From an uncultured Gemmatimonadales bacterium (GTDB taxonomy: Bacteria; Gemmatimonadota; Gemmatimonadetes; Gemmatimonadales; GWC2-71-9), in the NCBI GenBank assembly GCA_963821525.1, contig CAWGED010000005.1, forward strand, positions 352,001 through 416,000: a DNA stretch of 64,000 nucleotides, written 5' to 3'. Below, in pieces: positions 4,073-35,297 of the stretch (the stretch's first letter is position 1; each line of letters opens with the position of its first letter). The translations under genes and the position numbers were made by a program. The notes under the pieces were generated by a model, which did no database searches, was not told where the DNA came from, and was given only the letters and a program-made list of their open reading frames with translations.

Positions 4073-5629
4073 TTAGAACCTCCAGGTGAGCGAGCTGTAG
4101 AGCTGGTCGGTATGGTTGCCCGAGGCGTTTTCCCGACTTCCCGAGAGCAGCAGGTACCACGACCGCCCCAGCGAAATGTCCAGATCCGCACCCAGCCAGG
4201 AAATTGAGCGGTGGGTTGGAAACGCCAGCGGCTCATTTTCTTGTTGCACTCCCCCATTCAGCTCGAGATGCAGCGGTCCCGCAAGCTGGGCCCCAGCACT
4301 CAATGCATAGAGCCAGCCATCCAATCGCGGATTGGTGTAGCGGGTCACTCGGCCGTTTACTCCCAGACCGAAAGACGTGAGCTGATAGAGGCCACCCGTT
4401 GCGGTGATGGACGTCGCCGTGCCGGCCGGGCCGCCGAAGCTCGATCGCCCATCGGCACCGATTCGCCAGCGAGGACCGTTGAACGCGATCCCTCCCCAGG
4501 CTCCTTGTCGGTACTCGTCGTCGAACTGAGTCACCGGGTTCACCACATCCTCGTAGAGCCGCACATTGCGGCGTGTATCGTAGCCGCCGTAGAGAGAGAC
4601 GAGGCGATTCAATCGCAGGTTCGCGGTGAGGTAGGTACTGGTGAGAGATACAGACGCCTTCTCTCCGGCATCGACTTTCCAGGGCTGATAGTAGTCCAGC
4701 TCCTGGGATCCGAAGAGCGAGAGCCGCGGGTTATAAAACGAGGCCTGCACATACGCGAACTCCCGGTTCGCCTTGCCTTTGAAGTAGGAGCCGATCACGC
4801 CCGTCGTGACGGCCCATGCCTCGGTTGCTTCGCGGTGATGGACTCCCACGAAGCCACCAACCTGTTTCATGTCGGTGGAGAAGCCGAGGTCTGGGTCGGG
4901 CTGTGTCCCCGCGAAGACCCCAGCCCCCCAGCGCTGCTTATCCAGCTCGATTAACGCGCCATCGAAGAGACTGAGAGCCGAGAGGCTCTGAGAGAACTGC
5001 CGGCCGATGGTGGCCCGCCACGGCGAGGTGGTCCGCTGCCAGAAAAGGTTCGCCTCGTAGGCACGCGCCCGGTCGTCGACCAGGGTGGAGCCGTCGCTCA
5101 GGGTGCTCGTAGTCCGACGCGCCCGAAAATCCAGATCGATGCCCAGCCCGGAATCCCACAGGTTCTGACCCGCCAACCGTAGATCCGCCGCCGGCTGCCC
5201 GTATCCGACATTTCCTGCGCCATCCTTGACCACGAGATAGCGGGCTCCAACCCTGCCGTGGAGCAACCCCGCCTCCGGGCGGCCGCTCGCTGTGGTGCCC
5301 CGCACCGAGTCGTGAGTGACAGGCGCCGCCGCCACGGCAGGCGTGAACCTCACTTGATCTCCTACCTGGATGGCCGGATTGCCTTCGACCAGCTGGCAGA
5401 CGGACTGGTGGGACGAGAGGTACTGCACCCGAAGCTGTGCTACGGTGGAATCGCCGTGAAAGATGAAAACCTCGCTACCCTCCACCAGCCCATCCTGACG
5501 GCCCTTATTGATGTAGTAGGATCCCCCCACCACGTAGGTAACCCGCGCAGGACCGGTGCTCGCCGAATCCTGGGCGGCGAGAGTAGTGGCCCAGAGGGCC
5601 AAGAGCAGAACTCCGGAGACCCGTTGCAT
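4073..5629 (-). CDS. Putative outer-membrane beta-barrel (porin) with a small N-terminal domain
   Basis: Signal peptide MQRVSGVLLLALWATTLAA; many alternating amphipathic strands; C-terminal LYSSLTWRF; start overlaps the stop of the upstream cytochrome gene. Confidence 0.7.
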   Translation of the reverse strand: MQRVSGVLLLALWATTLAAQDSASTGPARVTYVVGGSYYINKGRQDGLVEGSEVFIFHGDSTVAQLRVQYLSSHQSVCQLVEGNPAIQVGDQVRFTPAVAAAPVTHDSVRGTTASGRPEAGLLHGRVGARYLVVKDGAGNVGYGQPAADLRLAGQNLWDSGLGIDLDFRARRTTSTLSDGSTLVDDRARAYEANLFWQRTTSPWRATIGRQFSQSLSALSLFDGALIELDKQRWGAGVFAGTQPDPDLGFSTDMKQVGGFVGVHHREATEAWAVTTGVIGSYFKGKANREFAYVQASFYNPRLSLFGSQELDYYQPWKVDAGEKASVSLTSTYLTANLRLNRLVSLYGGYDTRRNVRLYEDVVNPVTQFDDEYRQGAWGGIAFNGPRWRIGADGRSSFGGPAGTATSITATGGLYQLTSFGLGVNGRVTRYTNPRLDGWLYALSAGAQLAGPLHLELNGGVQQENEPLAFPTHRSISWLGADLDISLGRSWYLLLSGSRENASGNHTDQLYSSLTWRF

Positions 5630-6903
5630 CAATCGCCACCTCGGCCATTTGGATGGCAGCTGAGGCAGGCCGTGCTGACGTACGAATAGCCGGCCCGCCC
5701 GTGGTGTTTGCTGTCCATCGAGGCCTGATTGTGTTCGTGACACACGAGACAGGTGAACTGGCGGAAGTCGCTCGCCACCTGGTGGCAGGTGGAGCAACTG
5801 CTCCAGGTGCCACGGTGGCTCCCGCTGTAGATCGGGAAGAACGGTCCATCGTGTGCGAACACGGCGCCGGGCCACCGGGTCGTGTTGTGGCAGGAGGCGC
5901 AGTCGGTGGGGAAGCCGGCGCCCTGGTGAGCCGGATTGGTGGTCGCATTGTAGTCCGCGAGGTGGCAGCTCACGCACTGGTTGCTCTTGCCGATGTAGAC
6001 CCCATCGTTGTGACACTGCTGGCAGGTCGCTGCCTTATGCGCCCCCGTGAGCGGGAATTGAGTCCGCGAGTGATTAAACGGCGCGGTCCACGACGCGGTC
6101 GTGTGGCAGCTCACGCAGTCCGTGGGGAACGCGGCCTGGGCATGATTGGGTTGCGAGGTCTGGTTGTAGTCGTTCTGGTGACACGCGACGCATTGCGTCG
6201 ATGCGCCGGTGAAATTGTTTCCGACGTGACACTGGTCGCAGGGCACCGCACGGTGCGCGCCGGTAAGCGGGAAACCACTGCCGTCGTGATTGAACCGGGC
6301 CGGGTTCCACGCCACCGTGCCGTGGCACTGGTTGCAGGTCGTTGGGAATCCGCCGGCGAGGTGATTCGGATTGGACGCCGATTGGTAGGCGCTTTGATGG
6401 CAGCTCACGCAGTCGGTCGGGACCGCGAGGAACACCATCTGTCCCTGGGCCTGGGCCACGTGGCAAGACCGGCAATCGGTCACCAGATGGGCGCCATCCA
6501 GCGGGAACCGGGTGAGTTGGTGACCTCGGGTCATGGCCGCGCGATCGACGAAGCTTCTGGTCGTGTGGCAGCTGGAGCAGACGGTACCGAGCTCGCCGCG
6601 GTGGAGATCCTGGTGGCAGGACACGCAGGCCGGGTCCGCGTCACTGAAGGCCAGCGAAGCGTGGCAGGCCCGGCAGGTGGTCGAGGCGTGGGATCCGGTC
6701 AGGGCGAAGCCCTTCTTGGCATGGTCGAACGCACGGCTGATCCGCGCCGGTGTCCAGCCCTCCGGGGCATGGCAGGTGCTGCATTCTTCCTTAAGCGCGC
6801 CATGTGGGGAACGCGTCGCCTCCTGAGCCCACCCCTGACTGGCCAGGAGGCAGCCAAGCAACGCGAGTCCGACGGCTGGGCCGACACCCCGATCCCGAGT
6901 CAT
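5629..6903 (-). CDS. Multiheme cytochrome c, 16 CxxCH
   Basis: Signal peptide; 16 CxxCH by manual count; repeated FPLxGxH spacer. Confidence 0.9.
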   Translation of the reverse strand: MTRDRGVGPAVGLALLGCLLASQGWAQEATRSPHGALKEECSTCHAPEGWTPARISRAFDHAKKGFALTGSHASTTCRACHASLAFSDADPACVSCHQDLHRGELGTVCSSCHTTRSFVDRAAMTRGHQLTRFPLDGAHLVTDCRSCHVAQAQGQMVFLAVPTDCVSCHQSAYQSASNPNHLAGGFPTTCNQCHGTVAWNPARFNHDGSGFPLTGAHRAVPCDQCHVGNNFTGASTQCVACHQNDYNQTSQPNHAQAAFPTDCVSCHTTASWTAPFNHSRTQFPLTGAHKAATCQQCHNDGVYIGKSNQCVSCHLADYNATTNPAHQGAGFPTDCASCHNTTRWPGAVFAHDGPFFPIYSGSHRGTWSSCSTCHQVASDFRQFTCLVCHEHNQASMDSKHHGRAGYSYVSTACLSCHPNGRGGD

Positions 6904-8904
6904 GTGCCTCTCGGTTCGCCGTGGCAGCTTTCACACTTGGTCGAAACGGGCCGGTAGATCGTCGCTCCCGAGCGGTCCCTTGTGTGGCAGCCGCTGCATG
7001 GGACCGCCTCGTGCGCACCCTTCAGGGAGAAGTGTGTGTCACGGTTGTGGTCGAATCGGGAAGCCGGCGTGAATCCGTCGAGACCGTGACAGGCGTCGCA
7101 CTTGCCGCGATCCACGCGGGTGGCGAACTGATCGCCGTGCGGGCCTTGGTGACACTCTGCACACCCCGTCTTGGCCGCGAGCTTGAGCGGTGCGAACGCG
7201 GTGCCCGAGGCGGCCAGGCTGGAACCCGCCCGCCCCCTGTGCTGGAGGTCTCCATGACACGAGGCACAGGGGACTGCCCGGTGGGCACCTTGGAGCGGTA
7301 GCGCGAAGCGGTTGTGGGTATCGATGGTGATGGTCGAGGGGCGAAAGCTCTCCTGATCGTGACACGCGAGGCACCCTTCCGGCTGGGGTTGCTCACCACC
7401 CTGCGCAAATCGTCCTTGATGCGGATCCAGGTGACAGTCGGTGCAATTCGTTTCTGGGGGCCGGAACAGGAACCCGCCTTTGCCCAGTGCAACCGGGGCA
7501 CTCAGCACCCTGAGTCCGGGGCGCTTCGAACCATGGCAAGCCGAGCACGACACGGTGCCGTGTTTCCCCGCGAGAGTCACCCGCAGGTTCGCATGGTCTC
7601 GGAGGTCATACCGGCTGGGCTTCCAGCCGATCGCGATGTGGCAGGCACTGCACTCGCCCTTGTCGGGGCGGGTCGCCAGCTGGCCGCCGTGCTCGTCGGC
7701 GTGGCAGTCGAGGCACTTGGTGGCTGAGGGTCGGAGGATTACTCGGGCGCTGCCATAACGCGCGACCGGCGCCGTGAGGTCCTTGCGATGACACTGAGCG
7801 CAGGGTACGGCCTGGTGCTCTCCCTCGAGCGGGAACTTCGTCTTCGCGTGCTGCGCCACGCTCAACTGACCCGGACTGAAACCGGTAACGTCATGGCACG
7901 AGGCACAGTCCACCGCGATTCCCCCCAGTGTCGCGGTGCCACCGTGCGGATCGCTATGACACGCGGCGCAGGTGGCGAACGGCGGCCGCTTGCCTTGTTC
8001 GGTTCGGAAATCGTGGCACTTCGCGCAGGGGATGGACGCGTGCCGGCCGCGCAGGGGATACCGGGTGCGGTCGTGATCGAACGCCTGTTTCTCGATGGTT
8101 CCGAAACTCCGCGTGGAATGGCAGCCGGAGCAGGTGGCGCCCAGACGCCCGGCATGGGGATCCGCGTGGCACGCAGAGCATTGCCCGTGGGGAACCGGGC
8201 GGTATCTCGGTACGCGGTGACCCAGAGCGTCGTTCTTGAGGCCGAGTCTGGGGTCGAGGTGACATTGGCGACACGTCACCTCGGCATGCTTTCCGGTGAG
8301 TGGGTAGGCCGTCGAGTCGTGAGAGAATCCGGGGGTGACCTTCCATTTCCCTGCATCATGGCACCTGGCGCAGTCCTGTCCCAAGGCGCCTCGATGAACG
8401 TCCTCGTGGCACGACACGCACTCCCGAGACAATCCGGTCCAACTCTGGACGGTGCGCTGCACCGCGAGCTTCGCGGCCGGTGAGATCCGGAATTTCGTGG
8501 TGTGACAGTCGGCGCACTTCGCTCGTCGGTGACTTTGCTCCAGGGTCCAGCCCGCTCGCGCGTGATCAAAGCCTTCTGGAGTTCCATCCGGCCACTTGAT
8601 GAGGGCGAAGTCACGGCCTGCGTGGTCCGGGTGGCAGGACGCGCAGGTCTGCTCCCCGGAGAGCACCGTGGGGGCCTTCGCGCCGTGCGGCGAGCCAGCC
8701 GATGTCCTTGTGACAGTCCACGCAGAGCGTATCCATGGCTTCCTTCCGTCCTCCATGGCACCGGGTACAGTTCAGCGTCCCTTCGAGCTCCCGGTGTGCG
8801 CTGGCCAACGGGCCAGGTGAGATCTGGGCCTGCGATCGTGGAGCGCCTGCGATGAGAAGGCCGACCGCCAGAGCCGTGACTCGCACGGCTCGCGCGGTCT
8901 TCAC
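6900..8904 (-). CDS. Multiheme cytochrome c, ~23 CxxCH (indel near 8690)
   Basis: GTG start overlaps upstream TGA; signal peptide then QISPGPLASAH; 2 CxxCH before and 21 after the frame change. Confidence 0.85.
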
Positions 8905-9889
8905 CAGAACCACGTCGCCCCGAGCGCGACCACGACGCCCACATGGATCAGCACGGCCACGAGCGCTGTGATGGCAAACGGTCGGTGGGCCACATGCCAG
9001 TAGCGAAAGAGCCGTTGCGTCACCCCGAGCATCCGGGCTTGCTGAGTGAGAGCCATTTCCCGGTTGGCCAGGCGAAGCACGGTTCGAGAGTGCTCGTCGG
9101 TCCAGGCGCCGGGCAGTGCCGTTCCTTGCCTCCACTCTGTCGTCGCAGGACTCGGGCGGCTCGGCGACGGTCAAGGTCATCCTTCAGCATCAGGCCGACG
9201 CTGCGAACCAGGCCGATCCCTTCAGTCGGGCTGGGGTCAGAGCGGAGGGTGCCCTCGATTTCCTCCCTCGTCAGTCCGGTTTCGGTCGCGATCTGCAGGA
9301 TGAGTTCGTTGCGTTGCGCCGCCGTCTCCTCGGCGCTCAGCTCGAGCCCGCTCTGTCCCCGCGGAATCCGCACGTACAGGTATCGGCCCGCGATGCCGCT
9401 GGCGCAGACCACGATCATCGAGAGGTATCCCAGCCCGATCAGTCCATCGAACCGCCAGCTGGCATGGATGGCGGCGATCAGAGGGAGCGCCAGACGCCAC
9501 CAGGACGTGGGCATCCATCCAGCGCGACATCGATCCGGTCCACGCCAGCCAGCGGTATTTCTTGCGGAAGGGATAGAGCCAGAGAACAGGAAGATGAGCA
9601 ATGCCAGGATGCCGGCGGATTGCCCGATATAGCCCGAGGGCCGCAGCCACGGATGCCATGGCGAACGCACTCGCTCCGCAGGTGCGGCGAGATAGTACGG
9701 AGCCCCGATGAGAGAGATCGCGACCAGGACCGCGAGGACCGCCGCCAGCCCTCGCGGTGTGGCCGGCTTCGTCGCGGCCCGTGGAGGATTCGTCTCACCG
9801 CCGACCGGGGAGGGAGGCGCTACCTTGGTGGTCACGGGACGAGGGCGGGTTGCCAGCTTGAGCGCCCCGGGACGGACTGTTCGTTTCAT
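8901..9889 (-). CDS. Polytopic membrane protein with His in TM segments (ferric-reductase/cytochrome-b-like; several indels)
   Basis: Joined frames give hydrophobic helices containing MDAHV, AAIHA, YWHVAH and LIHV, ending ALGATWFW*. Confidence 0.6.
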
Positions 9890-10070
9890 GAAGGCTCGTT
9901 CAAAATGTTGGTCGGTACGCCGCGTGCATTACTGCAAAGGAGAAACCGTGGGGATGGAGCGAGGGTTGCTGGTGTAACAGATGATGCCACATAGAATTGC
10001 CGCGCAGCTCCAAGGCTGCTAACGGCTCCGCGAGTGCTACGCGTTGATCCACCTGTAACGAGTCGTTGCA

Positions 10071-11409
10071 ATGCTTGCTTATTTGACATTATTGGCGATC
10101 CTCGCTTTCACGATTGTCGCCCAGGTTCGGCGTATGCACCGTCGCGACCGCGAGGCTCGAGCTGCGGCATCCCGCGGCGGCCTGGTCACGGAAGGACCCC
10201 GGGCACAACATCCGCACATCGACGTGGATCACTGCATAGGCTGTGGTGCGTGCGTTGATGCTTGCCCGGAGGGAGACGTACTCGCCGTCATCGGCGGGAA
10301 AGCCGCGATCGCCAAAGGACACAAATGCATCGGTCACGGGCTCTGCGCCGAGGCTTGCCCGGTCGGCGCGATCGAGATCGTCATGGCCGCGGCGAGCATC
10401 AGCGCAGATCTGCCGCAACTCAGCGCCGACTATGAAACCAACGTTCCCGGGTCTCTTCATCGCCGGAGAGCTGGGCGGACTTGCCCTGATCAAGAACGCG
10501 ATCAATCAGGGTCGTGACTGCGTGGACACGATCGCCCGGCGGGTGGCCCAGACCCGCGGACCTCGCTCAGTCGAGGTTCACGACGTCTGCATTGTCGGAG
10601 CCGGTCCGGGAGGGATCAGCGCTTCGCTCCGCGCCATTGAGCGCAAGCTCTCGTATGTCACGCTGGAACAGGACGAATTGGGCGGGACGGTAGCCAAGTA
10701 CCCTCGACAGAAACTGGTCCTGACGAGCCCGGTCGAATTGCCGCTCTATGGGAAGTTCAAGAAACTCGAGATCTCGAAAGAGGACCTGCTGGAGGTGTGG
10801 GCGGAGCTCTCGGACAAGGTGGGGTTGGTCGTCAACACTCGGGAGCGGGTGGACCACCTGATTCGAGAGCCGGACGGCACCTTCCGCATCGAGACCTCGA
10901 ACGGACGCTATCGGGCCCGCCACGTGATCCTGGCCCTGGGTCGCCGGGGCACGCCCCGCAAACTTGGTGTTCCCGGCGAGGAACTCTCCCATGTCATGTA
11001 CAGCCTGATCGATGCGGAGGCGTATACCGACAAGAGGATTCTGGTGGTGGGTGGAGGTGACAGCGCGGTGGAGGCCGCTATGGGTCTGGCTCACCAGCGA
11101 GGAAACCGCGTCGTCGTCTCCTATCGGGCTGCGGAGTTCACGCGGCTCAAGGAGCGGAATGCGCGAGGCCTGCAGGAAGCCGTGAAATCAGGCCGACTCG
11201 AGGTAGTGCTGAATTCCCTGCCGACCGAGATCAGCAGCGAAGCGGTGCTGCTTCGGATCGGCGAGGGTACTCGCCGGATCTCAGCCGATTATGTATGGAT
11301 CTTCATAGGGGGCACGCCCCCCAATCACTTCCTGGAAAAGGCCGGGGTCATCCTTGGGGCACGGGACCTGACCGCCGAGGCGGCGGCAGAGGCATTGCGG
11401 GTCGCCTGA
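10071..11409 (+). CDS. Membrane-anchored 2x[4Fe-4S] ferredoxin fused to a thioredoxin-reductase-like FAD/NAD(P)-binding domain (indel near 10450)
   Basis: N-terminal TM; CIGCGACVDACP and CIGHGLCAEACP; IVGAGPGG; ILALGRRGTPRKLGVPGE; VVGGGDSA. Confidence 0.85.
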
Positions 11410-11465
11410 CGCGCTGCGAAGGCTCCGCTCGCGGAGTATATTGGACGCAGCAATCACGTGGAGTC

Positions 11466-11891
11466 ATGATGAAACCGGGACACAAATTCCTACTGGGCGC
11501 CGCCATCATCGTTGGCGCCGTTGCCTTGCTGATGATCGAAGGGGTCAAGGAGTTTGGTCAGTATTCCCTCACACCGACCGAACTTGCCGCCAAGACGGCC
11601 GCCGATTCCTCGTTCTACAACCTCGGCCTGAAGATGAACGCCAAAGTGGTTCCCGGAACGATCAAGCGGGACCCGGCGTCTCAGACCATCGATTTCGAGG
11701 TGACCGACGGCAGTCACACCTATCCTGTGAGTTATCACGGGCTGGCGCCCGACACCTTCACCGACCAGCAGGATATCGAAGTGGTCGTCGAGGGCCGGCT
11801 GGGGCGGGATGGGGTGTTCCGCGCCACGACACTGCTGGCCAAGTGCGGCTCGCGCTACTCCGGCAAGTACGCGGAGGGAAAGAAGGTGTAG
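11466..11891 (+). CDS. ccmE: Cytochrome c maturation heme chaperone CcmE (CxxxY type)
   Basis: N-terminal TM, V.Y.G..PDTF, VVVEGRL, LLAKCGSRY. Confidence 0.85.
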   Translation: MMKPGHKFLLGAAIIVGAVALLMIEGVKEFGQYSLTPTELAAKTAADSSFYNLGLKMNAKVVPGTIKRDPASQTIDFEVTDGSHTYPVSYHGLAPDTFTDQQDIEVVVEGRLGRDGVFRATTLLAKCGSRYSGKYAEGKKV

Positions 11892-11927
11892 CTGTCCCGG
11901 TAGGCTAGGCGGCGGTGGCTCGCGGGG

Positions 11928-11965
11928 GGGCCGGCTTCGGATTACGAAGCCGGCCCTTTGTTTTT
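11928..11965 (+). terminator. Rho-independent terminator after ccmE
   Basis: Perfect 12-bp stem GGGCCGGCTTCG-gatta-CGAAGCCGGCCC followed by TTTGTTTTT. Confidence 0.85.
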
Positions 11966-12277: not shown

Positions 12278-14623
12278 ATGAGACGGGTCGACCGTAGGAC
12301 GTTCCTCAAGAGGCTTGGGGTCGTTTCAGCGGCCACCGCCGCCGCTGGCGCCGTTCCCGGCATGGTGTTCCCCACGGGTGGTATCCTCCCGCACGGCGCC
12401 CAAACCGGCCCAGTCTGGAAGAAGACACCGTGCCGCCTTTGCGGCGTCGGCTGCGGATTACTGATAGCGATCGAGAACGGACGCGCAGTGGCCGTAAAGG
12501 GCGACCCTGACTCCCCGGTGAGCAAAGGGCTGGCCTGTGTGAAGGGCTATAACTCCGTGCAGGCGCTCTACGGGCGGGACCGGCTCGCGCACGCCATGGT
12601 CCGGCGCGACGGTGGGCTGGTGGAGGCTTCCCTCAACGAGACGTTCGACCTGGTGGCGCGCAGGCTCCGCGAGACCGTCGAGAAGCACGGCAAGAACAGC
12701 GTCGCCATCTACGGCTCGGCCCAGTGGACCATCCCGGATGCCTACATCGCGTCGAAGCTGTTCAAGGGAGCGCTGGGAACCAACAACGTGGAGACCAGCT
12801 CGCGCCTTTACGCCGGAAGCGCGATGGCCGGCCTCCAGAGCAGCTTCGGCCTCGACGGTGGGATCGGCTGCTACGAGGACATCGACCACGCCGACGTCTT
12901 CGTGTTGTGGGACGTCAATCTGGCGGAAACCGATCCGGTTCTCTTCTCTCGCATGCTGGACCGCCGGCGGGTGAACCCCGCCGTCCGGATCATCGAGGTC
13001 GCAACCCGCACCACGCGCACCAGTTACGCCGTCGACCAGTCTCTGCTGCACGCGCCGCATGCCGCGGCGGCGATCGCCAACGGCATCTGCAACGAAATCG
13101 TGGCCCGCAAATGGGTGCAGCAGGAGTTCGTCGCCCAGCACGTCGCCTTCAAACGGGGGAGGGCGAACATAGGTGACGGTCTGGCCGACGACCCTCTGGT
13201 TACGGAAGACGCCACCGACAGCACTTGGAGAGAGTACGTAGCGTTTCTCGCGGACTACGAGCCGGAGCGAGCCCAGGAATTGTCCGGCGTTTCGGCGGCG
13301 AGCATTCGCTGGCTGGCGTCCCTCTACGGCGACCCGCTGCGCAAGGTGATGTCGGTCTGGGGCCGAGAGGTGAACCAGGACGTGCGCGGCACCTGGATGA
13401 ACAACCTGCTCTACAACATCCATCTGCTGGTGGGGAAGGTCGCCTCGCCAGGGAATAGCCCCTTCGCCACCACGGGCCAGCCGAGCGGCGGGAGCGCGGT
13501 GAACGACGCGGGCAGCTTGACGCACACTCTGCCGCGCGGGGTGGTACAGAACGAAGAGGATCGCCGCCGGGCGTCGGAGATCTGGGGCGTCCCGGTGGAC
13601 AGGATCGATGCCCAGCCGACCGCCCCTTTGCTGGCAATGTTCCGCCAGCTGGAACGGGGCGACATCCGCTTTCTCTGGATCCTGGCCACCGATCCGATGG
13701 TCAGCCTGCCGAATTTGGACCGTTATCGTCAGGCGGCAACCAAGGGCGACCGCTTCATCGTGGTCTCGGAGGCGTATCCGACTCCTACGACGGATGTGGC
13801 GGACGTCGTCCTCCCCGCGGCGATGTGGCTTGAGCGCGAGGGGATCTACGCGAACGTCGAGCGCCGGGCGCAGCACTTCGAGCGGATGGTAGCGCCTCCC
13901 GGTGAGGCCACCGGCGACGCTTGGCAGATGATCGAGGTCGCCCGCCGTCTCGGCTTCGAGAAGCTGTTCCCCTACCAGCCGGGTGGCCACGTCGAGCAGA
14001 TCTGGGAGGAGTACCGCCGCTTTCATCAGGAACCGCAAGACGCGCTGCCCGCCACCTCCGAGCTCCGCGCGAACTCCGGCGTGATGTGGCCTTACGTGGG
14101 CGGCCGCGAGACGCGGTGGCGCTACAACTCCGCTTACGATCCGGCGGCCGATGGCACCCACGGCGCCTTCGATTTCTACGGCCATGCGGACCATCGTGCC
14201 TGGATCTGGCTCAGACCCTACGAGCCTCCGGCGGAGTTTCCAGGCGGCGAGTATCCATTCTGGCTCACGACGGGCGCCGTACTCGAGCATTGGGGTGCGG
14301 GCTCGATGACCCAACGCATTCCGACGTTGCATCACGCGCTCCCTCATGCCTACGTCGAGGTCAATCGCGAGGACGCAAGCGATCTGGGCATTCGGAACCG
14401 CGAGACCATCCGCCTGGTGAGCCGCCGCGGCTCGATCGAGCTCGAGGCCCGCATCGACTATCGTTCCCAACCGCCGCGTGGGCAGGTCTTTGTTCCGTCG
14501 TTCGACGAGGCGCGGCCGGTGAATCGGCTCACGCTCGATGCGTGCTGTCCGCTATCGGGCCAGCCCGATTCCAGCAAGTGTGCGGTTCGGGTGGAGCGAC
14601 TGACGCCGCGGAGCGGCACATGA
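12278..14623 (+). CDS. Tat-exported NapA-like (DMSO-reductase superfamily) subunit with a divergent active site
   Basis: DRRTFLK Tat motif; CRLCGVGC...CVKG FeS motif; GSAQWT, YNIHLLVGK, TGQPS, MWLEREG...NVERR, KCAV are colinear with NapA; the Mo-ligand position reads RLY. Confidence 0.85.
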   Translation: MRRVDRRTFLKRLGVVSAATAAAGAVPGMVFPTGGILPHGAQTGPVWKKTPCRLCGVGCGLLIAIENGRAVAVKGDPDSPVSKGLACVKGYNSVQALYGRDRLAHAMVRRDGGLVEASLNETFDLVARRLRETVEKHGKNSVAIYGSAQWTIPDAYIASKLFKGALGTNNVETSSRLYAGSAMAGLQSSFGLDGGIGCYEDIDHADVFVLWDVNLAETDPVLFSRMLDRRRVNPAVRIIEVATRTTRTSYAVDQSLLHAPHAAAAIANGICNEIVARKWVQQEFVAQHVAFKRGRANIGDGLADDPLVTEDATDSTWREYVAFLADYEPERAQELSGVSAASIRWLASLYGDPLRKVMSVWGREVNQDVRGTWMNNLLYNIHLLVGKVASPGNSPFATTGQPSGGSAVNDAGSLTHTLPRGVVQNEEDRRRASEIWGVPVDRIDAQPTAPLLAMFRQLERGDIRFLWILATDPMVSLPNLDRYRQAATKGDRFIVVSEAYPTPTTDVADVVLPAAMWLEREGIYANVERRAQHFERMVAPPGEATGDAWQMIEVARRLGFEKLFPYQPGGHVEQIWEEYRRFHQEPQDALPATSELRANSGVMWPYVGGRETRWRYNSAYDPAADGTHGAFDFYGHADHRAWIWLRPYEPPAEFPGGEYPFWLTTGAVLEHWGAGSMTQRIPTLHHALPHAYVEVNREDASDLGIRNRETIRLVSRRGSIELEARIDYRSQPPRGQVFVPSFDEARPVNRLTLDACCPLSGQPDSSKCAVRVERLTPRSGT

Positions 14624-15438
14624 GCTCCCCCGACCGGCACCCGGCCGCACTCGTCTTGGGCCTGTTCATGGTCGGCTCGGCCGTCACCGCCGCGGCCGCG
14701 TTGAGCGTCGCGGTGAAACGTGCTGCCGCCGGTCGGGAGCCGGTGCCCGCCCCCATCGCCGTCAAGATGGTGGCGCCACCCGATGAGCCGATCCGCGCCG
14801 AGGCGCAGGTGTTCCGCACAACTCCCGCCATCCTGGCGATCGAGCCCTCTGCCCGCCGGGAACGGTCGGCTCACCCGCGCACACTGAAGACGGTTCGCTT
14901 CCTGCGCGCCTTTCCGGGAGCCCCACCGCGGATTCCCCACGCCCTCACGCCTGAGGAATTCCGCACCGACGCCTGCAAGACCTGCCACGAGCGAGGTGGC
15001 TTCTCGCAGCGGTTTGACGCCTACGTGCCAGTGACGCCGCATCCCGAGCGGGGCATCTGTCTCCAGTGCCACGCGGGCGAGGACTCGCTCATGGGAGTGG
15101 CGATTCCCATCGCAAACCCGAACGCGAGGTGTCCGCAGTGCCACGGTCCGAGCGGTGGCCCCCCACGCGCAGATGCTACACTGACCTGGCCCACGACGGT
15201 TTGGCCGCAGGTGCCGCGGACAACGCCCGACCAAGATCCCCCCCCGATTCCGCACAGTCTGCAGTTCAGGGAGAATTGCCTCACCTGCCATTCCGGGCCT
15301 TCCGCCGTCGCTGAAATCCGGACCAAACACCCGGAGCGGGTCAACTGCCGTCAGTGCCATGTCGCGCTCGATCCGGAGGCGGAGCCGTTCGCCCGCCTGC
15401 CGCAGGACGTCGCTGCCGGGGACGGGAGTACGCCATGA
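14620..15438 (+). CDS. NapB-like cytochrome c with two PPxIPH modules, 5 CxxCH
   Basis: N-terminal hydrophobic segment; GAPPRIPH and DPPPIPH; CKTCH, CLQCH, CPQCH, CLTCH, CRQCH. Confidence 0.8.
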   Translation: MSSPDRHPAALVLGLFMVGSAVTAAAALSVAVKRAAAGREPVPAPIAVKMVAPPDEPIRAEAQVFRTTPAILAIEPSARRERSAHPRTLKTVRFLRAFPGAPPRIPHALTPEEFRTDACKTCHERGGFSQRFDAYVPVTPHPERGICLQCHAGEDSLMGVAIPIANPNARCPQCHGPSGGPPRADATLTWPTTVWPQVPRTTPDQDPPPIPHSLQFRENCLTCHSGPSAVAEIRTKHPERVNCRQCHVALDPEAEPFARLPQDVAAGDGSTP

Positions 15439-16157
15439 GCCGGACCCGGGTTGCGACCGCGGTCGGGTGCCTCGCGGCAGCATGGCTGACGTCTGCCTGT
15501 CGCGAACGAGCCCATGCGGTGTGGGACGTCCCACCGCCCGGGGCGGTCAGCCAGGTCGACTCTGCGACGGCCGCCCTGAACGCGACTCTGGAGCCCGGCG
15601 TACTGGCAACGGTGCAGGCGGTGCCGGTCCAACGCTGGAAGGGACCGGGCAACGAGCCATTCGAAGTCGCGCTCCGCAGCGCGACTCCGGAGGCGGGACA
15701 CTCCCGAATGTTCGGCTCCATCACGCTGCCGATCGCGCTGCGTAGCCGGGCGGCGGCCATGAGTCAGTACCCCTGCACGTCATGCCACCAGGGCCGGAAG
15801 GTGGTCATGGCCAACAAGCGCATCAGCGACGCTCACAACAACATCAAGCCGGTGCACCCGGACCAGACCGGCGCCGTCTGCTCCACCTGCCACTCGGCCG
15901 ACGACGTCGAGCTGCTCACGCTCAAGAGCGGCGAGCACGCCACCCTGGACGAGAGCTATCGGCTGTGTGCGCAGTGCCACTTCGAGCAGGCGAAGGCGTG
16001 GGCCGGCGGCGGGCATGGGAAACGACTCGACGGCTGGGAGGGACGGCGGGTGGTCATGGCCTGCGCCGATTGCCACGACCCACACAATCCCGCTGTCCAG
16101 ACCCGCATCCCCTTCCGCGCGCCGGAACTCGAGCGAACCAGGAGCGCCGGCCCATGA
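15435..16157 (+). CDS. Tetraheme cytochrome c, probable lipoprotein
   Basis: LTSAC lipobox-like motif; CTSCH, CSTCH, CAQCH, CADCH. Confidence 0.8.
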   Translation: MSRTRVATAVGCLAAAWLTSACRERAHAVWDVPPPGAVSQVDSATAALNATLEPGVLATVQAVPVQRWKGPGNEPFEVALRSATPEAGHSRMFGSITLPIALRSRAAAMSQYPCTSCHQGRKVVMANKRISDAHNNIKPVHPDQTGAVCSTCHSADDVELLTLKSGEHATLDESYRLCAQCHFEQAKAWAGGGHGKRLDGWEGRRVVMACADCHDPHNPAVQTRIPFRAPELERTRSAGP

Positions 16158-17128
16158 GCGATGACGGCACCCCCCAGATGCCGGAGCGCGCCGACGGCAC
16201 CGTGCTGCAGAAGCGGGTCGATCGGCGGGAAGCGCTGGGCCTCCTGGTTGGCGGCCTGGCCGCCGGCGCTGCCGCGGTGGGCGCGTGTACCCCGCTCACC
16301 GCGGCGACGCCCGAGGAGCGCGAGCTCAAGCTCTTAGCCTGGCGGGAGTACATCAAGGGCAATTACCACTTCATGACGGAGGAGGAGCGGGCGGAGACGA
16401 TCGCTCGTCTCGAGCGCCTCGCGAAGCTGCAGCGCGGCGTGGACGTGACTATCCAGTCCACCGGGGCACAGCCCGGCGTGATGTTCGGCTACGCCTTCAA
16501 TATTTCGAAGTGCAAGGGGTTCCGGAACTGCGTCGAGGCCTGCATCAACGAGAACAATCTCGATCGGCGGGCGGCGACGCAGTACATCCGCATCTTCGAG
16601 ATGGAGGACGGCGAAGTCGACCTCGACCTCGCCGATGCGACCTTCCAGCACGAGGTGCCGGCCGAGGGCCACTTCTATCTCGGGACCCAGTGCTTCCAGT
16701 GCGCCGATCCCCCGTGTGTGAAGGTCTGCCCGGTGGGCGCCACCTGGCAGGAACCGGATGGCATCACGGTCATCGACTACGACTGGTGCATTGGGTGCCG
16801 CTATTGCATGGCCGCCTGTCCCTACTGGGCGCGGCGCTTCAACTGGAGCCAGCCGGAGGTCCCCCAAGAGGAAGTGAACCCCAACCAGCACTACCTGGGC
16901 AACCGCGCGCGCAAGAAGGGCGTGGTCGAGAAGTGCACCTTCTGCATCCACCGGACCCGGCAGGGCCGGTTGCCGGCCTGCGCCGAGGCCTGTCCCACAG
17001 GGGCGCGGGTCTTCGGCAACCTGCTGGATCCCGACTCCGAGATCCGCTGGGTGCTGGCGAACAAGCGAATTTTCCGGCTGAAGGAAGAACTGAAGACGGA
17101 GCCGCGTTTCTGGTACTTCACCGACTGA
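16154..17128 (+). CDS. NrfC/PsrB/DsrO-like iron-sulfur subunit, copy 1
   Basis: DRREALG twin-arginine-like leader; CKGFRNCVEAC, CFQCADPPCVKVCP, CIGCRYCMAACPY, KCTFC...PACAEACP. Confidence 0.9.
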   Translation: MSDDGTPQMPERADGTVLQKRVDRREALGLLVGGLAAGAAAVGACTPLTAATPEERELKLLAWREYIKGNYHFMTEEERAETIARLERLAKLQRGVDVTIQSTGAQPGVMFGYAFNISKCKGFRNCVEACINENNLDRRAATQYIRIFEMEDGEVDLDLADATFQHEVPAEGHFYLGTQCFQCADPPCVKVCPVGATWQEPDGITVIDYDWCIGCRYCMAACPYWARRFNWSQPEVPQEEVNPNQHYLGNRARKKGVVEKCTFCIHRTRQGRLPACAEACPTGARVFGNLLDPDSEIRWVLANKRIFRLKEELKTEPRFWYFTD

Positions 17129-17135
17129 GGCGACC

Positions 17136-18430
17136 GTGCACCTGAAGCCATTCCTGCTCACAGCCCTAGACTCGGCGACCACCGGGGGCCGGCGCTACCA
17201 CCTCTGGATGGGGAGCCTGACGGCGATCATCCTCGTCGGGGCGTACGCGTATTCCCTCCAGCTGCGCTACGGACTCGGCGTCACGGGAATGAGCGATCAG
17301 GTGAGCTGGGGTCTTTACATCTCGAACTTCACCTTTCTCGTCGGCATGGCCGCGGCCGCCATGATGCTGGTGCTGCCGGCGTACATCCTGGACGACGTGG
17401 ACTTCGGCCGCGCGGTGCTGATGGCGGAAGGCGGTCGCCGTGGCGGCGCTGGTCATGTGCCCTCGGGTTCGTGGTGGTGGACATCGGCAACCCATTCGCC
17501 GGGTGGCACCTCGTGCCCGGCATCGGCTACCTGAACTGGCCGCGGTCGCTCCTGGCCTGGGACGTGATCGTGCTGAACGGGTACCTGGCGCTGAATCTGG
17601 CCATCCCGTTCTACATCCTCTACAGCCACTACTCCGGCCGTTCGCCGGCCAAGAACAAGTACCTCCCCTGGATGTACATCTCCGCCATGTGGGCGGTGAG
17701 CATTCACCTGGTCACGGCGTTCCTGCTGGCGGGCCTGCCCGCCCGGCCGTTCTGGAACACGGCGCTGCTGGGGCCCCGGTTCCTGGCCTCGGCCTTCACC
17801 GCGGGGCCGGCGTTCGTGCTCGCTGCTGCTCTGGTTCATCCGGCGGAAGACGAAGTACGCCATTGCCGATGGCGCCTTCTCGAAGCTCGCGCTGATCGCT
17901 GTCGCCGCGGCGCAGATCAACCTCGTGATGCTCATCTCCGAGCTGTTCTACGAGTTCTACTCGCCCACCCATCACGGCATCAACGCGCGGTATCTCTTCT
18001 TCGGCCTCGGCGGGCACCACGCCCTGGTGCCCTGGATCTGGACGGGGATCGGGCTGAATGTCCTGCGCGACCGTCGCCCTCATGATCCACCCGCTGCGGC
18101 GCAAATCCGCGCTGGCTGATGCCGGCCTGCGCCACGCTGTTCGTGGGCATCTGGATCGAGAAGGGGATCGGCCTGGTGATCCCCGGCTTCATTCCCTCGC
18201 CGCTGGGCGAGATCGTCGAGTACACGCCCACCTGGGTCGAGCTGTGCGTGACCGCCGGCATCTGGGCCCTGGGCCTGTTCGTGCTGACCGTCCTGGTGCG
18301 GGTGGCGCTGCCGATCGAGCTGGGGGATGTGCGCAGTCCGTACCTGGCGCAGGCGCCCGCCGCGCGGGCAGTCCGCCCGCGCGCGACCCGGGCGCGGCAC
18401 GAGGACGTCCGGCCAGTCCGGACCCGATGA
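17136..18430 (+). CDS. NrfD/PsrC/DsrP-like quinone-interacting membrane subunit, copy 1 (indels)
   Basis: GVTGMSDQVSWGLYISNFTFLVG, DIGNP, SLLAWDVIVL, HLVTAFL, EKGIGLVIPGF, EYTPTWVE. Confidence 0.85.
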
Positions 18431-18481
18431 TCCGACGCTGGGCACTCCGCCGGCCGACTTTACTTCCACGAGGTGATGGAC

Positions 18482-19361
18482 ATGACCAGACACTAGGCCA
18501 AACGACACCCGATACTCCTTCGCCGCGCTCGCCGCGGGGCTGGTCGGGGCGGCCGGGCTGGCCGGCGGGCTGTTCCTCGCGGGGGTCGCGCCGCCGCTGG
18601 CCGCGGTGGCGGGCCTGGGATTGGGGCTGCTCCTCGCCGCCTCGATCAAGTACACCGACCAGTGGGAGAAGGCGGTCCTCCTGCGGCTCGGCCGCTACCG
18701 GGGCCTGCGAGGTCCCGGGTACTTCGCCATCGTGCCGATCCTCGATCGGGTGGCCTACACCATCGACCAGCGGATCCGGACCACGGCGTTCGGCGCCGAA
18801 TCGTGCCTGACCCGCGACACGGTGCCGGTCAACGTCGACGCCATCGCCTTCTGGATCGTGCGCGACGCCGAGCGCGCCGCGCTGGAGGTGCAGGACTACG
18901 ACGAGGCGGTCATCCTCTCGGCGCAGACCGCGCTGCGGGACGCCATCGGGAAGCACGATCTCGCGGAGCTGATCCAGTCCCGGGTGGAACTGGGCCACGG
19001 ACTCAAGGTGGCGCTGGAGCAGAAGATGGCGAACTGGGGGATCCAGGTGCAGTCGGTGGAGATCCGGGACGTCATCATCCCGGCCGCGCTCGAGGACGCC
19101 ATGTCGCGCCAGGCCCAGGCCGAGCGGGAGCGCCAGGCCCGCATCATCCTGGGCACTGCGGAAACCGAGATCGCCCACAAGTTCGTCGAGGCCGCGGCCG
19201 CCTACCGCGACCACCCCGAAGCCATGAACCTGCGGGCCATGAACATGCTCTACGAGAGCATCGTCAAGCGCGGCTCGCTCATGGTGGTGCCCTCAGGCCT
19301 GGCCGACTCCCTGAACGTCCCATCCCTGATGGGCGTGTCAGGGGCACCGAAGAGCCTGTAA
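18482..19361 (+). CDS. SPFH/stomatin (slipin) family protein, copy 1 (5' indels, shorter C-terminus)
   Basis: QWEKAVLLRLG, LTRDTVPVNVDA, AQTALRDAIG, SVEIRDV, QAQAERERQARII. Confidence 0.85.
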
Positions 19362-19440
19362 CCCGGAAGGGAGGCGCAGGACCCCAGATGCACAACTGCC
19401 CCTTCCGCCCTGAACTGGAGCGTACCAGGAGCCACGGCCC

Positions 19441-20420
19441 ATGAGTGACAACCGCATCCCCGAGATGCCCGAGAGCGCCGACGACGGCACCGTGCTGCAG
19501 AAGCGGGTCGATCGCCGGGATGCGCTGGGCCTCCTGCTCGGCGGCCTGGCCGCCGGCGCTGCCGCGGTGGCCGCGTGTACCCCGCTCACCGCGGCGACGC
19601 CCGAGGAGCGCGAGCTCAAACTGCTCGAATGGGAACAGTTCACCCAGAAGCACTATCGCCGGATGACCGAGGAGGAGCGCGCAGAGACCATCCAGCGGCT
19701 CGAGCGCCTCGCCAAGCTGCTCCATAACCAGGACGTCACCATCGCCACTACCAATGCATTGCCGGGAGTCCTCTTCGGCTACGCCTTCAACATCTCGAAG
19801 TGCAAGGGCTACCGGCGCTGCGTCGAGGCCTGCATCAACGAGAACAACCTGGACCGCAAAGCGGACACGCAGTACATCCGGATCTTCGAGAACGGAACAC
19901 GGCGTGGTCAATCTCAACGATGCCGATGCGACCTATCCAACACGAGGTGCCGGCCGAGGGCCACTTCTACCTCGGGACCCAGTGCTTCCAGTGCGCCAAC
20001 CCGCCCTGCGTCCCGGTCTGCCCGGTGGGCGCCACCTGGCAGGAGCCCGATGGCATCGTGGTGATCGACTACAACTGGTGCGTCGGATGCCGGGCCTGCA
20101 TGGCCGCTTGCCCCTACTGGGCGCGGCGCTTCAACTGGGACGTGCCCGAGGTGCCCAACGAGGAAGTGAACCCCAATCAACACTACCTCGGGAATCGTGC
20201 CCGCAAACAGGGATGCGTCGAGAAGTGCACCTTCTGCATCCACCGGACCCGGCAGGGCCGGTTGCCGGCCTGCGTCGAGGCCTGTCCCACCGGGGCGCGG
20301 GTCTTCGGCAACCTGTTGGATCCCGATTCCGAGATTCGTTGGGTGCTCGCAAACAAGCAGGTCTTCCGTCTGAAGGAAGAGCTCGCGACGGAACCGCGCT
20401 TCTGGTACTTCATCGACTGA
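19441..20420 (+). CDS. NrfC/PsrB/DsrO-like iron-sulfur subunit, copy 2 (indels near 19890-19940)
   Basis: Same Cys motifs as copy 1 (CKGYRRCVEAC ... CVGCRACMAACPY). Confidence 0.85.
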
Positions 20421-20427
20421 GGCGACC

Positions 20428-21721
20428 GTGCATCTACGAGCCTTCCTGTTGAGCGCGCTGCGCTCCGTGACCTCCGGCGATCGCCGCTACCATCTCTGGA
20501 TGGGGAGCCTGACGGCGATCATGCTGGTCGGGGGCTATGCCTACCTCGTCCAGGCCACCCACGGGCTCGTCGTCACGGGGATGAACGACCATGTGAGTTG
20601 GGGACTGTACATCTCCAACATGGCGTTCCTCGTGGGGGTGGCGGCCGCGGCGGTGATCCTGGTGATGCCGGCGTATGTCCTGCAGGACGTCGACTTCAGC
20701 CAGGCCGTCCTCATCGCCGAGGGGGTCGCGGTGTCCGCCCTGGTCATGTGCCTCAGCTTCGTCACGGCCAACAGTCCGGGCTTTCCCTGGAAGTGGTGGC
20801 GCCTCACGCCGGTCATCGGACTGCTAAACTGGCCCAGCTCGATGCTGGCATGGGACGTCATTGCCCTGAACGGCTACCTGGTGCTCAACCTCACCATCCC
20901 GTTCTACATCCTCTACAGCCACTTCACCGGACGCGAGCCGGAGAAGAAGAAGTACGTGCCGTTCATTTACCTCTCGGTCGTCTGGGCGGTGAGCATTCAC
21001 CTGATTACCGCGTTTCTTTCGCGGCCCCACCGTCCCGCCCCCTGTGGAACTCGCCGCTGCTTGGGCCCCGCTTCCTGGCCTCGGCCTTCACGGCCGGCCC
21101 CGCGTTCATGATCCTGTTGCTCGGGTTTATCCGGTCGACCAGCCAAGTACCCCATTTCGGACATGGCCATCTCGAAACTGGCCACCGCCACCACCGTGGC
21201 GGCGCAGATCAATCTCGTGATGCTCTTTTCCGAGCTGGTTTACGAGTTCTACTTTCCCACGCATCACAGCATCAGCGCGCGATATCTCTTCTTCGGCCTC
21301 GGCGAGCATCATGCGCTGGTGCCGTGGATCAGGACCGCGGATCACCCTCAACGTCGTGGCGACGTGGTCGCTCATGATCCACCCGCTGCGGCGTAACCCG
21401 CGCTGGCTGATGCCGGCCTGCGCCACGCTGTTCGTCGGCATCTGGGTCGAGAAGGGGATCGGCCTGGTGATCCCGGGCTTCATTCCCTCGCCGCTGGGCG
21501 AGATCGTCGAGTACACCCCCACCTGGGTCGAGCTGTGCGTGACCGCCGGCATCTGGGCCTTGGGCCTGTTCGTCCTGACCGTCCTGGTGCGGGTGGCGCT
21601 TCCGATCGAGCTGGGGCATGTGCGCAGTCCCTATCTGGAGCAGGGGCCCGCCCCGCGGGCAGTCCGCCCGCGCGCGACCCGGGTGCGGCACGAGGACGTC
21701 CGGCCGGTCCGGACCCGATGA
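20428..21721 (+). CDS. NrfD/PsrC/DsrP-like membrane subunit, copy 2 (indels)
   Basis: VTGMNDHVSWGLYISNMAFLVG; C-terminal part almost identical to copy 1. Confidence 0.85.
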
Positions 21722-21763
21722 TACGACGCTGGGCACTCCGCCAGCCGACTTTACTTCCACGAG

Positions 21764-22753
21764 GTGATGGCCATGACCAGACATAGAGCAAACGACACCC
21801 GGTACTCCTTCGCCGCGCTCGCCGCGGGGCTGGTGGGGGCGGCCGGGCTGGCCGGCGGACTGTTCCTCGCGGGGATCGCGCCGCCGCTGGCCGCGGTGGC
21901 GGGCCTGGGACTGGGGGTGCTCCTCGCCGCCGCGATCAAGTACACCGACCAGTGGGAGAAGGCGGTCCTCCTGCGGCTGGGCCGCTATCGGGGCCTGCGA
22001 GGTCCCGGGTACTTCGCCGTCGTCCCGATCCTCGATCGGGTGGCGTACACCATCGACCAGCGGATCCGGACCACGGCGTTCGGCGCCGAATCCTGCCTGA
22101 CCCGCGACACGGTGCCGGTGAACGTCGACGCCATCGCGTTCTGGATCGTGCGCGACGCCGAGCGCGCCGCGCTGGAGGTGCAGGACTACGACGAGGCGGT
22201 CGTCCTCTCGGCGCAGACCGCGCTGCGGGACGCCATCGGGAAGCACGATCTCGCGGAGCTGATCCAGTCCCGGGTGGAGCTGGGCCACGGGCTCAAGGTG
22301 GCGCTGGAACAGAAGATGGCGAATTGGGGGATCCAGGTGCAGTCGGTCGAGATCCGCGACGTCATCATCCCGGCCGCGCTCGAGGATGCCATGTCGCGCC
22401 AGGCCCAGGCCGAACGGGAACGCCAGGCCCGCATCATCCTGGGCACGGCGGAAACCGAGATCGCCCACAAGTTCGTCGAGGCCGCGGACGCCTACCGCGA
22501 CCACCCCGCAGCCATGAACCTGCGCGCGATGAACATGCTCTACGAGAGCATCGTCAAGCGCGGCTCGCTCATGGTGGTGCCGTCAGGCCTGGCCGACTCG
22601 CTGAACGTCCCATCCCTGATGGGCGTGATGGGTGCCACCGGACTGCTGCCGCGGGATGGCGAGGCCAAGGCACCGGTGATGGGAGGTGGGGCGGCCACGG
22701 TCGCGCCTGGGGCGCCTGCCCCCAGCGCGGCGGAAACCGGGAAGGCGCACTAG
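21764..22753 (+). CDS. SPFH/stomatin (slipin) family protein, copy 2
   Basis: Intact ORF with the same SPFH motifs as copy 1. Confidence 0.9.
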   Translation: MMAMTRHRANDTRYSFAALAAGLVGAAGLAGGLFLAGIAPPLAAVAGLGLGVLLAAAIKYTDQWEKAVLLRLGRYRGLRGPGYFAVVPILDRVAYTIDQRIRTTAFGAESCLTRDTVPVNVDAIAFWIVRDAERAALEVQDYDEAVVLSAQTALRDAIGKHDLAELIQSRVELGHGLKVALEQKMANWGIQVQSVEIRDVIIPAALEDAMSRQAQAERERQARIILGTAETEIAHKFVEAADAYRDHPAAMNLRAMNMLYESIVKRGSLMVVPSGLADSLNVPSLMGVMGATGLLPRDGEAKAPVMGGGAATVAPGAPAPSAAETGKAH

Positions 22754-27633: not shown

Positions 27634-27714
27634 GTCGGTATAGAAAATACCCGCCCCGGCAAAAGGAACATCGCCGGGGCGGGTGAGACTCCGCGTCACC
27701 AAGGCGCGCCCCAA

Positions 27715-29406: not shown

Positions 29407-29588
29407 AGGGCCACCCCTTATGTAACGCGTTGTCCGTAGAAATACGGTGAGGCTAGTAGCGCTAAGATACGGATGCCGGGAGCGAGGGCAAGAGGGAGAG
29501 TGTAACCGTGAAGGAACTTTAAGCCGAAGTTTAAGCTGGACTCATGCCAAACCCTGGGTACCTGCGTACAGGAAATGCGACCAATCGT

Positions 29589-35291: not shown

Positions 35292-35297
35292 GAGGGC

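Follow-up and report, generated by a model that had tools for sequence, protein, structure and literature searches.

The napA' locus and its product

The DNA under study is a stretch of 64,000 nucleotides (the window) from an uncultured Gemmatimonadales bacterium (assembly GCA_963821525.1, contig CAWGED010000005.1, positions 352,001 to 416,000 of the forward strand), and its subject here is a gene at 12278–14623 (+), designated napA', which encodes a NapA-derived protein of 781 amino acids with an apparently dismantled molybdenum (Mo) site. It opens a cassette in the order napA', pentahaem cytochrome, tetrahaem cytochrome, NrfC/DsrO-like iron-sulfur (Fe-S) protein, NrfD/DsrP-like membrane protein and SPFH protein. 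The frame is open throughout with zero internal stops, and the product was assigned by family, solved-sequence and fold matches: its best family match is NapA (744 bits), its best solved-sequence match is 3ML1 (E 1e-185), and its AlphaFold model (pLDDT 78, pTM 0.83) retrieved NapA structures in Foldseek with TM 0.87–0.90, the top one being 3o5a (TM 0.90). The genome of the window, an assembly 81% complete, has a single napA' copy.

At 12809–12811 (+) the codon TAC encodes Tyr178, which in the alignments falls on the Mo-ligating Cys of solved NapAs (C179 of E. coli NapA; C179, G213, D264, R720 and the like follow E. coli numbering, and Y178, K89 and Y91 that of NapA'). The initial annotation, made from the letters of the window, had read this codon in the same way, and the five altered motifs that it listed are all present in the translated product. 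Its change of NARHC to SSRLY holds for Cys to Tyr and has to be given up for His to Leu, because the Cys-bearing sister NapAs already have Leu before the Cys; that residue is excluded from the change. No sequencing run contained as many as half of the sequence words sampled. Contigs of relatives list no change at 12809–12811 among their best-supported rows, and contigs of a relative from one RNA run (X20) span 12577–12857 and 13280–14723, which is not proof of transcription.

The Tat (twin-arginine) signal peptide, the FeS motif and the frame, which had been called intact, are indeed so. The signal occupies 12278–12400 (+, end approximate). Among 121 rows (the 120 clusters closest to the query, with 73–94% identity, and the query itself) 102 have its RR motif, the remaining 19 rows being gapped there. 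The 4Fe-4S motif at 12431–12550 (+) retains C52/C55/C59/C87 together with K89 and Y91; in the alignment of 158 Cys-less NapA-like rows used for site counts, the motif cysteines are found in 100% of filled rows, K89 in 155/158, and the Y91 position holds Tyr in 149 and Phe in 9 rows.

Loss of the molybdenum ligand and of pocket residues

The replacement at the ligand site is clade-wide among the closest homologues, and the closest clusters are Cys-less rather than canonical. In the 121 rows the ligand column contains Tyr 111, Phe 5, His 4, Thr 1 and Cys 0; in the 158 rows it contains Tyr 142, His 6, Phe 5, Ser 2, Arg 2, Thr 1 and again no Cys, so that Tyr lacks the invariance expected of a metal ligand. 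Both Tyr codons are used (TAC 27 and TAT 5 among 38 genome-derived Cys-less rows), and the earlier argument against a single base error is thereby borne out.

Among 55 Cys NapAs, 255 positions are near-invariant (conservation of 95% or more); in the 158 Cys-less rows 187 of these persist, 34 are relaxed and 34 have been lost. Those in the last group lie mostly within or close to the pocket motifs and include N175, C179, M180, E195, G213, H220, D264, M372, G373, H377, A413–G415, R418, E419, R720, H726, F794 and K819. Two pterin patches, 212–219 and 718–729, are described in NapA, with conserved G213, N215, E218, R720, V721, H724, W725 and H726 (PMC13223375); of these eight residues G213, R720 and H726 are lost in the clade, H724 is relaxed to His/Gln, and N215, E218, V721 and W725 are kept. 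In the first patch Asp212 (12911–12913, +) takes the place of Gly213, which is found in 46/46 sister NapAs and has become Asp in 149/158 Cys-less rows. In the second (14276–14296, +) Arg720 is replaced by Ala667 and His726 by Gly673; Arg is kept in 0/158 rows and Gly stands for the His in 156/158.

As a yardstick 99 diverse Cys-bearing Nap/Nas/Fdh representatives were used (106 of 150 matches were long enough to align). They have G213 in 99/99, Asp or Asn at D264 in 98/99, R720 in 96/99 and K819 in 97/99, and all four are lost in the Cys-less clade, three of them with variable replacements. At R720, D264, M372, F794 and K819 mixed sets of residues have taken over, a pattern that resembles a release of constraint. 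Only one of eight Mo/substrate-core positions is kept, on a site list that is partly our assumption; the other contact positions are those we take to be annotated in UniProt/HAMAP.

Kept in the clade are the four FeS cysteines, K83, Y85, Q150, Q410, S508, D558 and mostly N802, where K83 is the lysine between the 4Fe-4S cluster and the pterin (PMC12769810) and Y85 the tyrosine facing the NapB haem (PMC13223375). The clade replacements D509E and N482D are also seen in Cys-bearing proteins (18/99 and 8/99, respectively). With sites assigned to what are presumably the two nucleotide half-sites, the domain III half keeps 10/16 and the other half 6/17. The alignments demonstrate that the Mo ligand, the predicted substrate pocket and key pterin contacts have been lost in this clade; the Mo centre and one nucleotide half appear dismantled, the other half partly intact.

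Two cytoplasmic proteins of the Fdh-alpha family (P0253 and P0226, above the TIGR01591 cut-off) have the ligand Cys changed to Tyr and Ser and the Arg720 and His726 equivalents to Thr/Ser and Gly, i.e., NapA'-like changes in an unrelated lineage.

Ancestry, napD and the electron-transfer cassette

The 79 genome loci, drawn from the best 80 of 490 matches, comprise 34 of the window type, 44 canonical Cys NapAs (55–67% identity) and one Ser form (L079). In a quick tree (93 rows, pocket columns removed) the Cys-less rows are nested within Gemmatimonadota Cys NapA, and in a careful tree (41 rows) the main Cys-less clade has support of 100/99; the partial or frameshifted loci L007, L021, L024, L029, L031, L043, L072 and L073 were excluded from trees and dN/dS. 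This nesting demonstrates, on the level of protein phylogeny, that NapA' descends from a Cys-bearing NapA. The Ser form is a Longimicrobiales NapA-like gene at L079:10001–12304, in which Asp replaces Gly213 and neither Arg720 nor His726 remains; it joins the Cys-less clade in the quick tree (SH-aLRT 99) and the Cys-bearing L032 in the careful tree (94/98), and the approximately unbiased (AU) test leaves a single Cys-less clade including L079 unrejected (p 0.32). L079 may be a second independent loss of the ligand Cys, with parallel changes. Three further Cys-less loci, L130, L131 and L132 (53–55% identity), have long branches and a more eroded pocket and keep the FeS cysteines and the operon. 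The Cys-less genes L012, L016 and L042 lie on short contigs labelled Chloroflexota, Actinomycetota and Acidobacteriota, which may reflect gene transfer or mis-binning.

The dN/dS ratio (Nei-Gojobori) is 0.10–0.18 in seven Cys-less pairs with dS <0.45 (0.135 for the window and L001, 0.176 for the window and L002), and 0.06–0.08 in three close Cys NapA pairs and 0.34 in one distant pair. Selection on the Cys-less clade is about twofold relaxed, yet clearly purifying, and not the simple decay that the initial annotation had allowed for. The Cys-less frames are open over 54–96% identity, and the broken ones are frameshifts in a few assemblies only (L001, L006, L024, L043).

A further loss concerns napD, whose product is tied to Mo-cofactor insertion (PMC4159696; PMC10609526). 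A napD-like gene precedes 40/44 Cys loci versus 0/35 Cys-less loci, and a genome-wide search with a clade-specific profile found napD in 8/11 close Cys genomes versus 0/43 Cys-less genomes, one 24-bit match inside a 679-residue frame being discounted. This profile was used because Pfam NapD, which also found nothing in the 43 Cys-less genomes, is too weak a detector for this lineage (E 8e-5). The Cys-bearing close sister L123 (genome G072) has a porin cluster and an SPFH gene and no detectable napD, and is a possible intermediate. Two Cys NapA modules per genome, each with napD, were observed twice (L117 and L118 in G292; L038 and L061).

Several other readings of the cofactor data were set aside. 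Loss of Mo-cofactor synthesis is uninformative as proof of a Mo-free state, with MoaC in 40/43 Cys-less and 11/11 Cys genomes; in the genome of the window MobA gives a sub-cut-off match only. A heterodimer of NapA' with a true NapA was rejected, as 0/35 Cys-less genomes have a second full-length NapA at E<=1e-50; the other matches of the NapA search in Cys-less genomes are Fdh-like with 29–32% identity, and one genome (G021) has two overlapping partial NapA pieces (69–72% identity), one without the ligand region. A selenocysteine NapA, suggested by flags of one TGA, was rejected too, for the stops observed were terminal.

The genes behind napA' lie on the same strand. A membrane-anchored, NapB-like pentahaem cytochrome c at 14620–15438 has five CxxCH motifs and a sub-cut-off Pfam NapB match (E 1.6e-4); it is followed by a tetrahaem cytochrome c at 15435–16157 (four CxxCH), a probable lipoprotein by a signal judged by eye. 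The NrfC/DsrO-like Fe-S protein at 16154–17128 scores 193 bits with DsrO (cut-off 200) and 154 bits with QrcC. The NrfD/DsrP-like, probably quinone-reacting membrane protein at 17136–18430 was identified by family matches and is frameshifted in this assembly; its intact orthologue in L002 is above the DsrP cut-off (371 versus 350) and shows 8 helices in a crude hydropathy scan. An SPFH/stomatin-type protein (18495–19361, start approximate; Band_7 E 1.3e-36) completes the cassette, whose GC content is unremarkable (0.67 versus 0.65–0.66). A second NrfC-NrfD-SPFH copy follows at 19441–22753 (85.6% nucleotide identity over 3.2 kb), its NrfC and NrfD being frameshifted here; this tandem duplication (16154–22753) is common to L001, L011, L015, L043 and L059 and is not present in L002. 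Upstream, a terminator-like hairpin (11925–11959, +) lies between ccmE and napA', napD is not there, and no sigma-70 promoter match was found upstream of napA'.

The first five cassette genes are common to the Cys sisters, which indicates that the wiring was inherited from a Nap. Five congeneric genomes are without the entire six-gene block between ccmE and the 16-haem gene. Among 301 Gemmatimonadota genomes 30 have a NapA-like gene (E<=1e-100), comprising 15 Cys-less, 13 Cys and 2 unread, and the pentahaem is confined to 20 genomes with module-type NapA plus one weak match; none of the 301 has the pentahaem without a NapA-type gene. By gene content napA' is demonstrably co-inherited with the pentahaem, tetrahaem, NrfC and NrfD genes, with napD gone.

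In complex prediction NapA' paired with the pentahaem reached a score of 0.69, the best of 3 controls 0.00; the score mark is reached by 116/157 solved pairs and 2/215 mismatched pairs. The model runs share at least 0% of contacts, the pLDDT of the partner is at least 62, and likeness to solved NapAB may account for the pass. The predicted interface takes in Y91 and the FeS domain, 35/40 of its positions have the sister consensus versus 532/731 overall, and its conservation within the clade is 0.91 versus 0.84 for the whole protein. The cytochrome-facing surface is evidently kept under purifying selection.

Beyond the duplication lies a putative porin-cytochrome cluster of four genes (22781–29400, −), for a 16-haem cytochrome, a probable beta-barrel called on a weak Pfam match (E 0.0017), a cytochrome of up to 18 haems and a 7–9-haem cytochrome; three of its genes are frameshifted. 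Single-base frameshifts are numerous throughout 17136–29400 and are probably assembly errors, because relatives' contigs show indels in the NrfD gene and L002 is intact. Where both flanks extend for 7 kb or more, a putative porin-multihaem cluster adjoins 19/20 Cys-less loci versus 3/15 Cys loci, a contrast inflated by kinship. The barrel gene itself occurs in 132/301 Gemmatimonadota genomes (88/125 in the window's family), mostly without the cassette, and 20 barrel regions from 19 genomes have zero pentahaem, tetrahaem or NrfD genes. The napA' cassette is therefore an optional add-on, and the spread of the barrel gene suggests that extracellular electron transfer is widespread in Gemmatimonadota.

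A second cluster at 4073–11891 combines a probable barrel that has no annotation with large multihaem cytochromes, two or three in number, and also includes ccmE and a ferredoxin-FAD oxidoreductase; it is conserved in close relatives with the cassette present or absent. On the other side of the cassette a V/A-type ATPase operon (29542–37775, −) and a membrane-bound [NiFe] hydrogenase with maturation genes (38020–47633, +) were recognised by eye from the open reading frame list. Elsewhere in the genome a formate dehydrogenase (C19:312902–314836) has an in-frame TGA at its ligand site, probably encoding selenocysteine.

The role of NapA' and its place among molybdoenzyme folds

NapA' is probably (about 0.65) a Mo-free 4Fe-4S scaffold subunit of a periplasmic quinone-cytochrome electron-transfer complex. 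Of the two options in the initial annotation, a molybdoenzyme acting on a new substrate and a scaffold without cofactor, the second is preferred. That Mo is absent, that NapA' acts as a scaffold and which way the electrons flow are points that we infer. NapA' would be exported folded via Tat and would dock on the NapB-like pentahaem and stabilise it; the tetrahaem and pentahaem would carry electrons between the quinone pool, reached through NrfD/NrfC, and multihaem cytochromes of the periplasm, most likely outward into the neighbouring porin-cytochrome conduit. The FeS cluster of NapA' would have a structural role or lie on a side branch, as N7 does in complex I, and one nucleotide half-site may still carry GTP/GDP, which is plausible by analogy with M. 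smegmatis NuoG. In its set of components such a complex would be convergent with Qrc and alternative complex III (ACIII).

A number of observations weigh against this scaffold. The ligand loop of the model has pLDDT <50. K83, Q150, Q410, S508, D558 and N802 are retained and D509E and N482D are tolerated in Cys proteins, so that half of the cofactor site looks usable, and the near-fixed new pocket residues D212, D219, H258, H261, D368, H409 and D410 could be a new active site. The napD gene is absent also in 3/11 close Cys genomes, including the 99%-complete G072, and our napD profile misses 10/10 distant Cys genomes; MoaC persists in nearly all Cys-less genomes. The conduit does not need the cassette, since the barrel gene mostly occurs without it, and the genome of the window has a separate ACIII-like locus (C19:167343–171193).

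Among known systems NapA (PDB 3ML1/3O5A, 2NYA, 1OGY, 2NAP) is the direct ancestor, and NapA' shares with it the fold, Tat signal, 4Fe-4S cluster, Lys83, Tyr85 and a NapB-like partner; unlike NapA, it has no Cys ligand, it has lost G213, D264, M372, R418, R720, H726, F794 and K819, and its locus is without napD, NapC and NapGH. The available part of a 2026 Nap review gives four operon types, none with NrfCD (PMC13223375). QrcB and ActB are cofactor-less and stand beside a multihaem cytochrome, a four-cluster Fe-S protein and an NrfD-family protein (PMC6303296, PMC13059093), and ten-helix NrfD proteins (QrcD, DsrP, ActC) go with the cofactor-less partners QrcB and ActB (PMC6303296). NapA' resembles them as a molybdoenzyme-fold subunit with multihaem cytochrome, Fe-S and NrfD-family membrane proteins, and its lost contacts suggest that it too may be without the Mo/W-pterin cofactor. 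However, it scores 68 bits against the QrcB cut-off of 440 (NF041783) and nests in NapA, which means a separate origin; it retains 4Fe-4S ligands where QrcB is described without a redox cofactor, its membrane subunit is DsrP-like, and, unlike ActB, it is not fused to the Fe-S subunit.

Similarly, NuoG/Nqo3 (PDB 8E9G, M. smegmatis) and FhcB have the molybdoenzyme fold without Mo-bisPGD, as presumed for NapA', and NuoG/Nqo3 retains the off-pathway 4Fe-4S cluster N7 and gives a precedent for a nucleotide in one half-site; these proteins are cytoplasmic and derive from Fdh/Fwd, whereas NapA' is periplasmic and arose from NapA much more recently, its Cys-bearing sisters being extant. AioA and IdrA have no amino-acid ligand at the position where NapA' lacks Cys, but they keep the bis-pterin and a 3Fe-4S cluster (PMC10100899), whereas NapA' has a four-Cys motif and cytochrome partners and no Rieske protein, and scores 98 bits with the AioA model (cut-off 359). 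The comparison with arsenite oxidase carries less weight than the initial annotation gave it, because NapA' has lost not only the ligand but also residues that bind the pterin. By description the DsrO-like, DsrP-like and tetrahaem genes of the cassette recall the DsrOhPh-tetrahaem locus of cable bacteria, a module of unknown function proposed to transfer electrons from quinone to periplasmic cytochrome; NapA-like and pentahaem genes are not described for it in the accessible part of that article (PMC13047784). By membership NapA' fits none of QrcB, ActB and Nqo3.

Catalysis on a new substrate, with NapA' as a terminal reductase fed by NrfD, NrfC and the cytochromes, is an unlikely alternative that still deserves weight; Mo/W-bisPGD could be held without a protein ligand as in AioA and IdrA or via Tyr, or the newly fixed His and Asp residues could form another kind of site. 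The FeS cluster at which the electron chain still ends has retained K89 and Y91, the former pocket is lined by new polar residues that are nearly fixed, Mo-cofactor synthesis is present, an amino-acid ligand is dispensable in AioA and IdrA (PMC10100899, Table 1), and C176D of CjNapA retains some activity (PMC12769810). It is difficult to reconcile such an enzyme with the loss of pterin contacts besides the ligand, with the mixtures at R720, D264, M372, F794 and K819, with the 16/158 rows that have His, Phe, Ser, Arg or Thr in place of Tyr, with the loss of napD, and with L130–L132, where the pocket is further eroded and the operon kept. A rebuilt pocket of the near-fixed Tyr178, Asp212, Asp219, His258, His261, Asp368, His409 and Asp410 with half a nucleotide site beside a live 4Fe-4S cluster, an unprecedented cofactor state in the DMSO reductase family, is likewise doubtful; if true, one pterin nucleotide or a non-Mo metal would serve a redox reaction of unknown kind in the periplasm of abundant soil bacteria, with connections to the quinone pool and the porin-cytochrome conduit.

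It is considerably less probable that NapA' is a nucleotide- or redox-sensing subunit that tunes the complex through GTP/GDP, or one pterin nucleotide, bound in the half-site nearer the FeS cluster. The better retention of the domain III half-site and the GTP-like ligand about 10 Å from the equivalent cluster in M. smegmatis NuoG (PMC10068793) point in this direction; yet both altered patches touch the proximal pterin (PMC13223375), the domain III motif is partly structural and cofactor-less NuoG/NDUFS1 match the same stretch, and a bound nucleotide may be purely structural and hence part of the scaffold. Equally improbable is a slowly decaying relic, kept as the first gene of a useful operon. 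The roughly doubled dN/dS, the long branches of L130–L132 and the patchy cassette (15/301 genomes) are what decay would leave, but the pentahaem never occurs without a NapA-type gene, frames are open across the whole identity range, the partner interface is conserved above average, and the few frameshifts resemble those breaking other genes of the window. An ordinary nitrate reductase, or a Tyr due to sequencing error, is very improbable in spite of the NapA fold and Nap-type operon, with Cys in 0/158 rows, a score below the NCBIfam NapA cut-off passed by 4/4 sisters, and M180, E195, R418 and the motif following GQP changed.

The initial annotation had expected mislabelling as nitrate reductase, which is the JGI label of 61 of 120 listed homologues (hand count); the NCBIfam NapA model NF010055 (cut-off 904), however, excludes the clade (744 bits for NapA' and 730 bits) and admits 4/4 Cys sisters (933–984). 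Full-length nrfA occurs in 7/43 Cys-less genomes, which would be scored as nitrate ammonifiers; compared with nrfA in 6/11 Cys genomes this is a weak, non-independent contrast. Two ecogenomic papers on Gemmatimonadota refer to napAB or to dissimilatory nitrate reduction, the active site being uncommented in their available parts (PMC10581226, PMC11651109). A family survey has NapA as Cys-ligated and, in the part available, names only FhcB, Nqo3 and ActB as cofactor-less (PMC10100899); it screened sequences for the correct ligand and may thus have removed this clade. No description of a Cys-less NapA clade was found in the searchable full-text literature, in which subscription journals are mostly uncovered and supplements excluded, and the clade is apparently an undescribed NapA-derived form of cofactor-less molybdoenzyme-fold subunit.

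The Cys-less form, present in many soil Gemmatimonadota, is probably often counted in error as nitrate respiration in nitrogen-cycle surveys. The cofactor-less folds QrcB, ActB, Nqo3 and FhcB are old and their ancestors remote, whereas here the change from enzyme to putative scaffold would be recent, with Cys-bearing sisters at about 62–65% identity, G072 as a possible intermediate (Cys without napD), the possible second loss in L079 and the more eroded L130–L132. The origin of Qrc- and ACIII-like complexes thereby becomes directly testable, and the cassette suggests that a major soil phylum has an unstudied quinone-to-cytochrome route, encoded beside putative genes for extracellular electron transfer.

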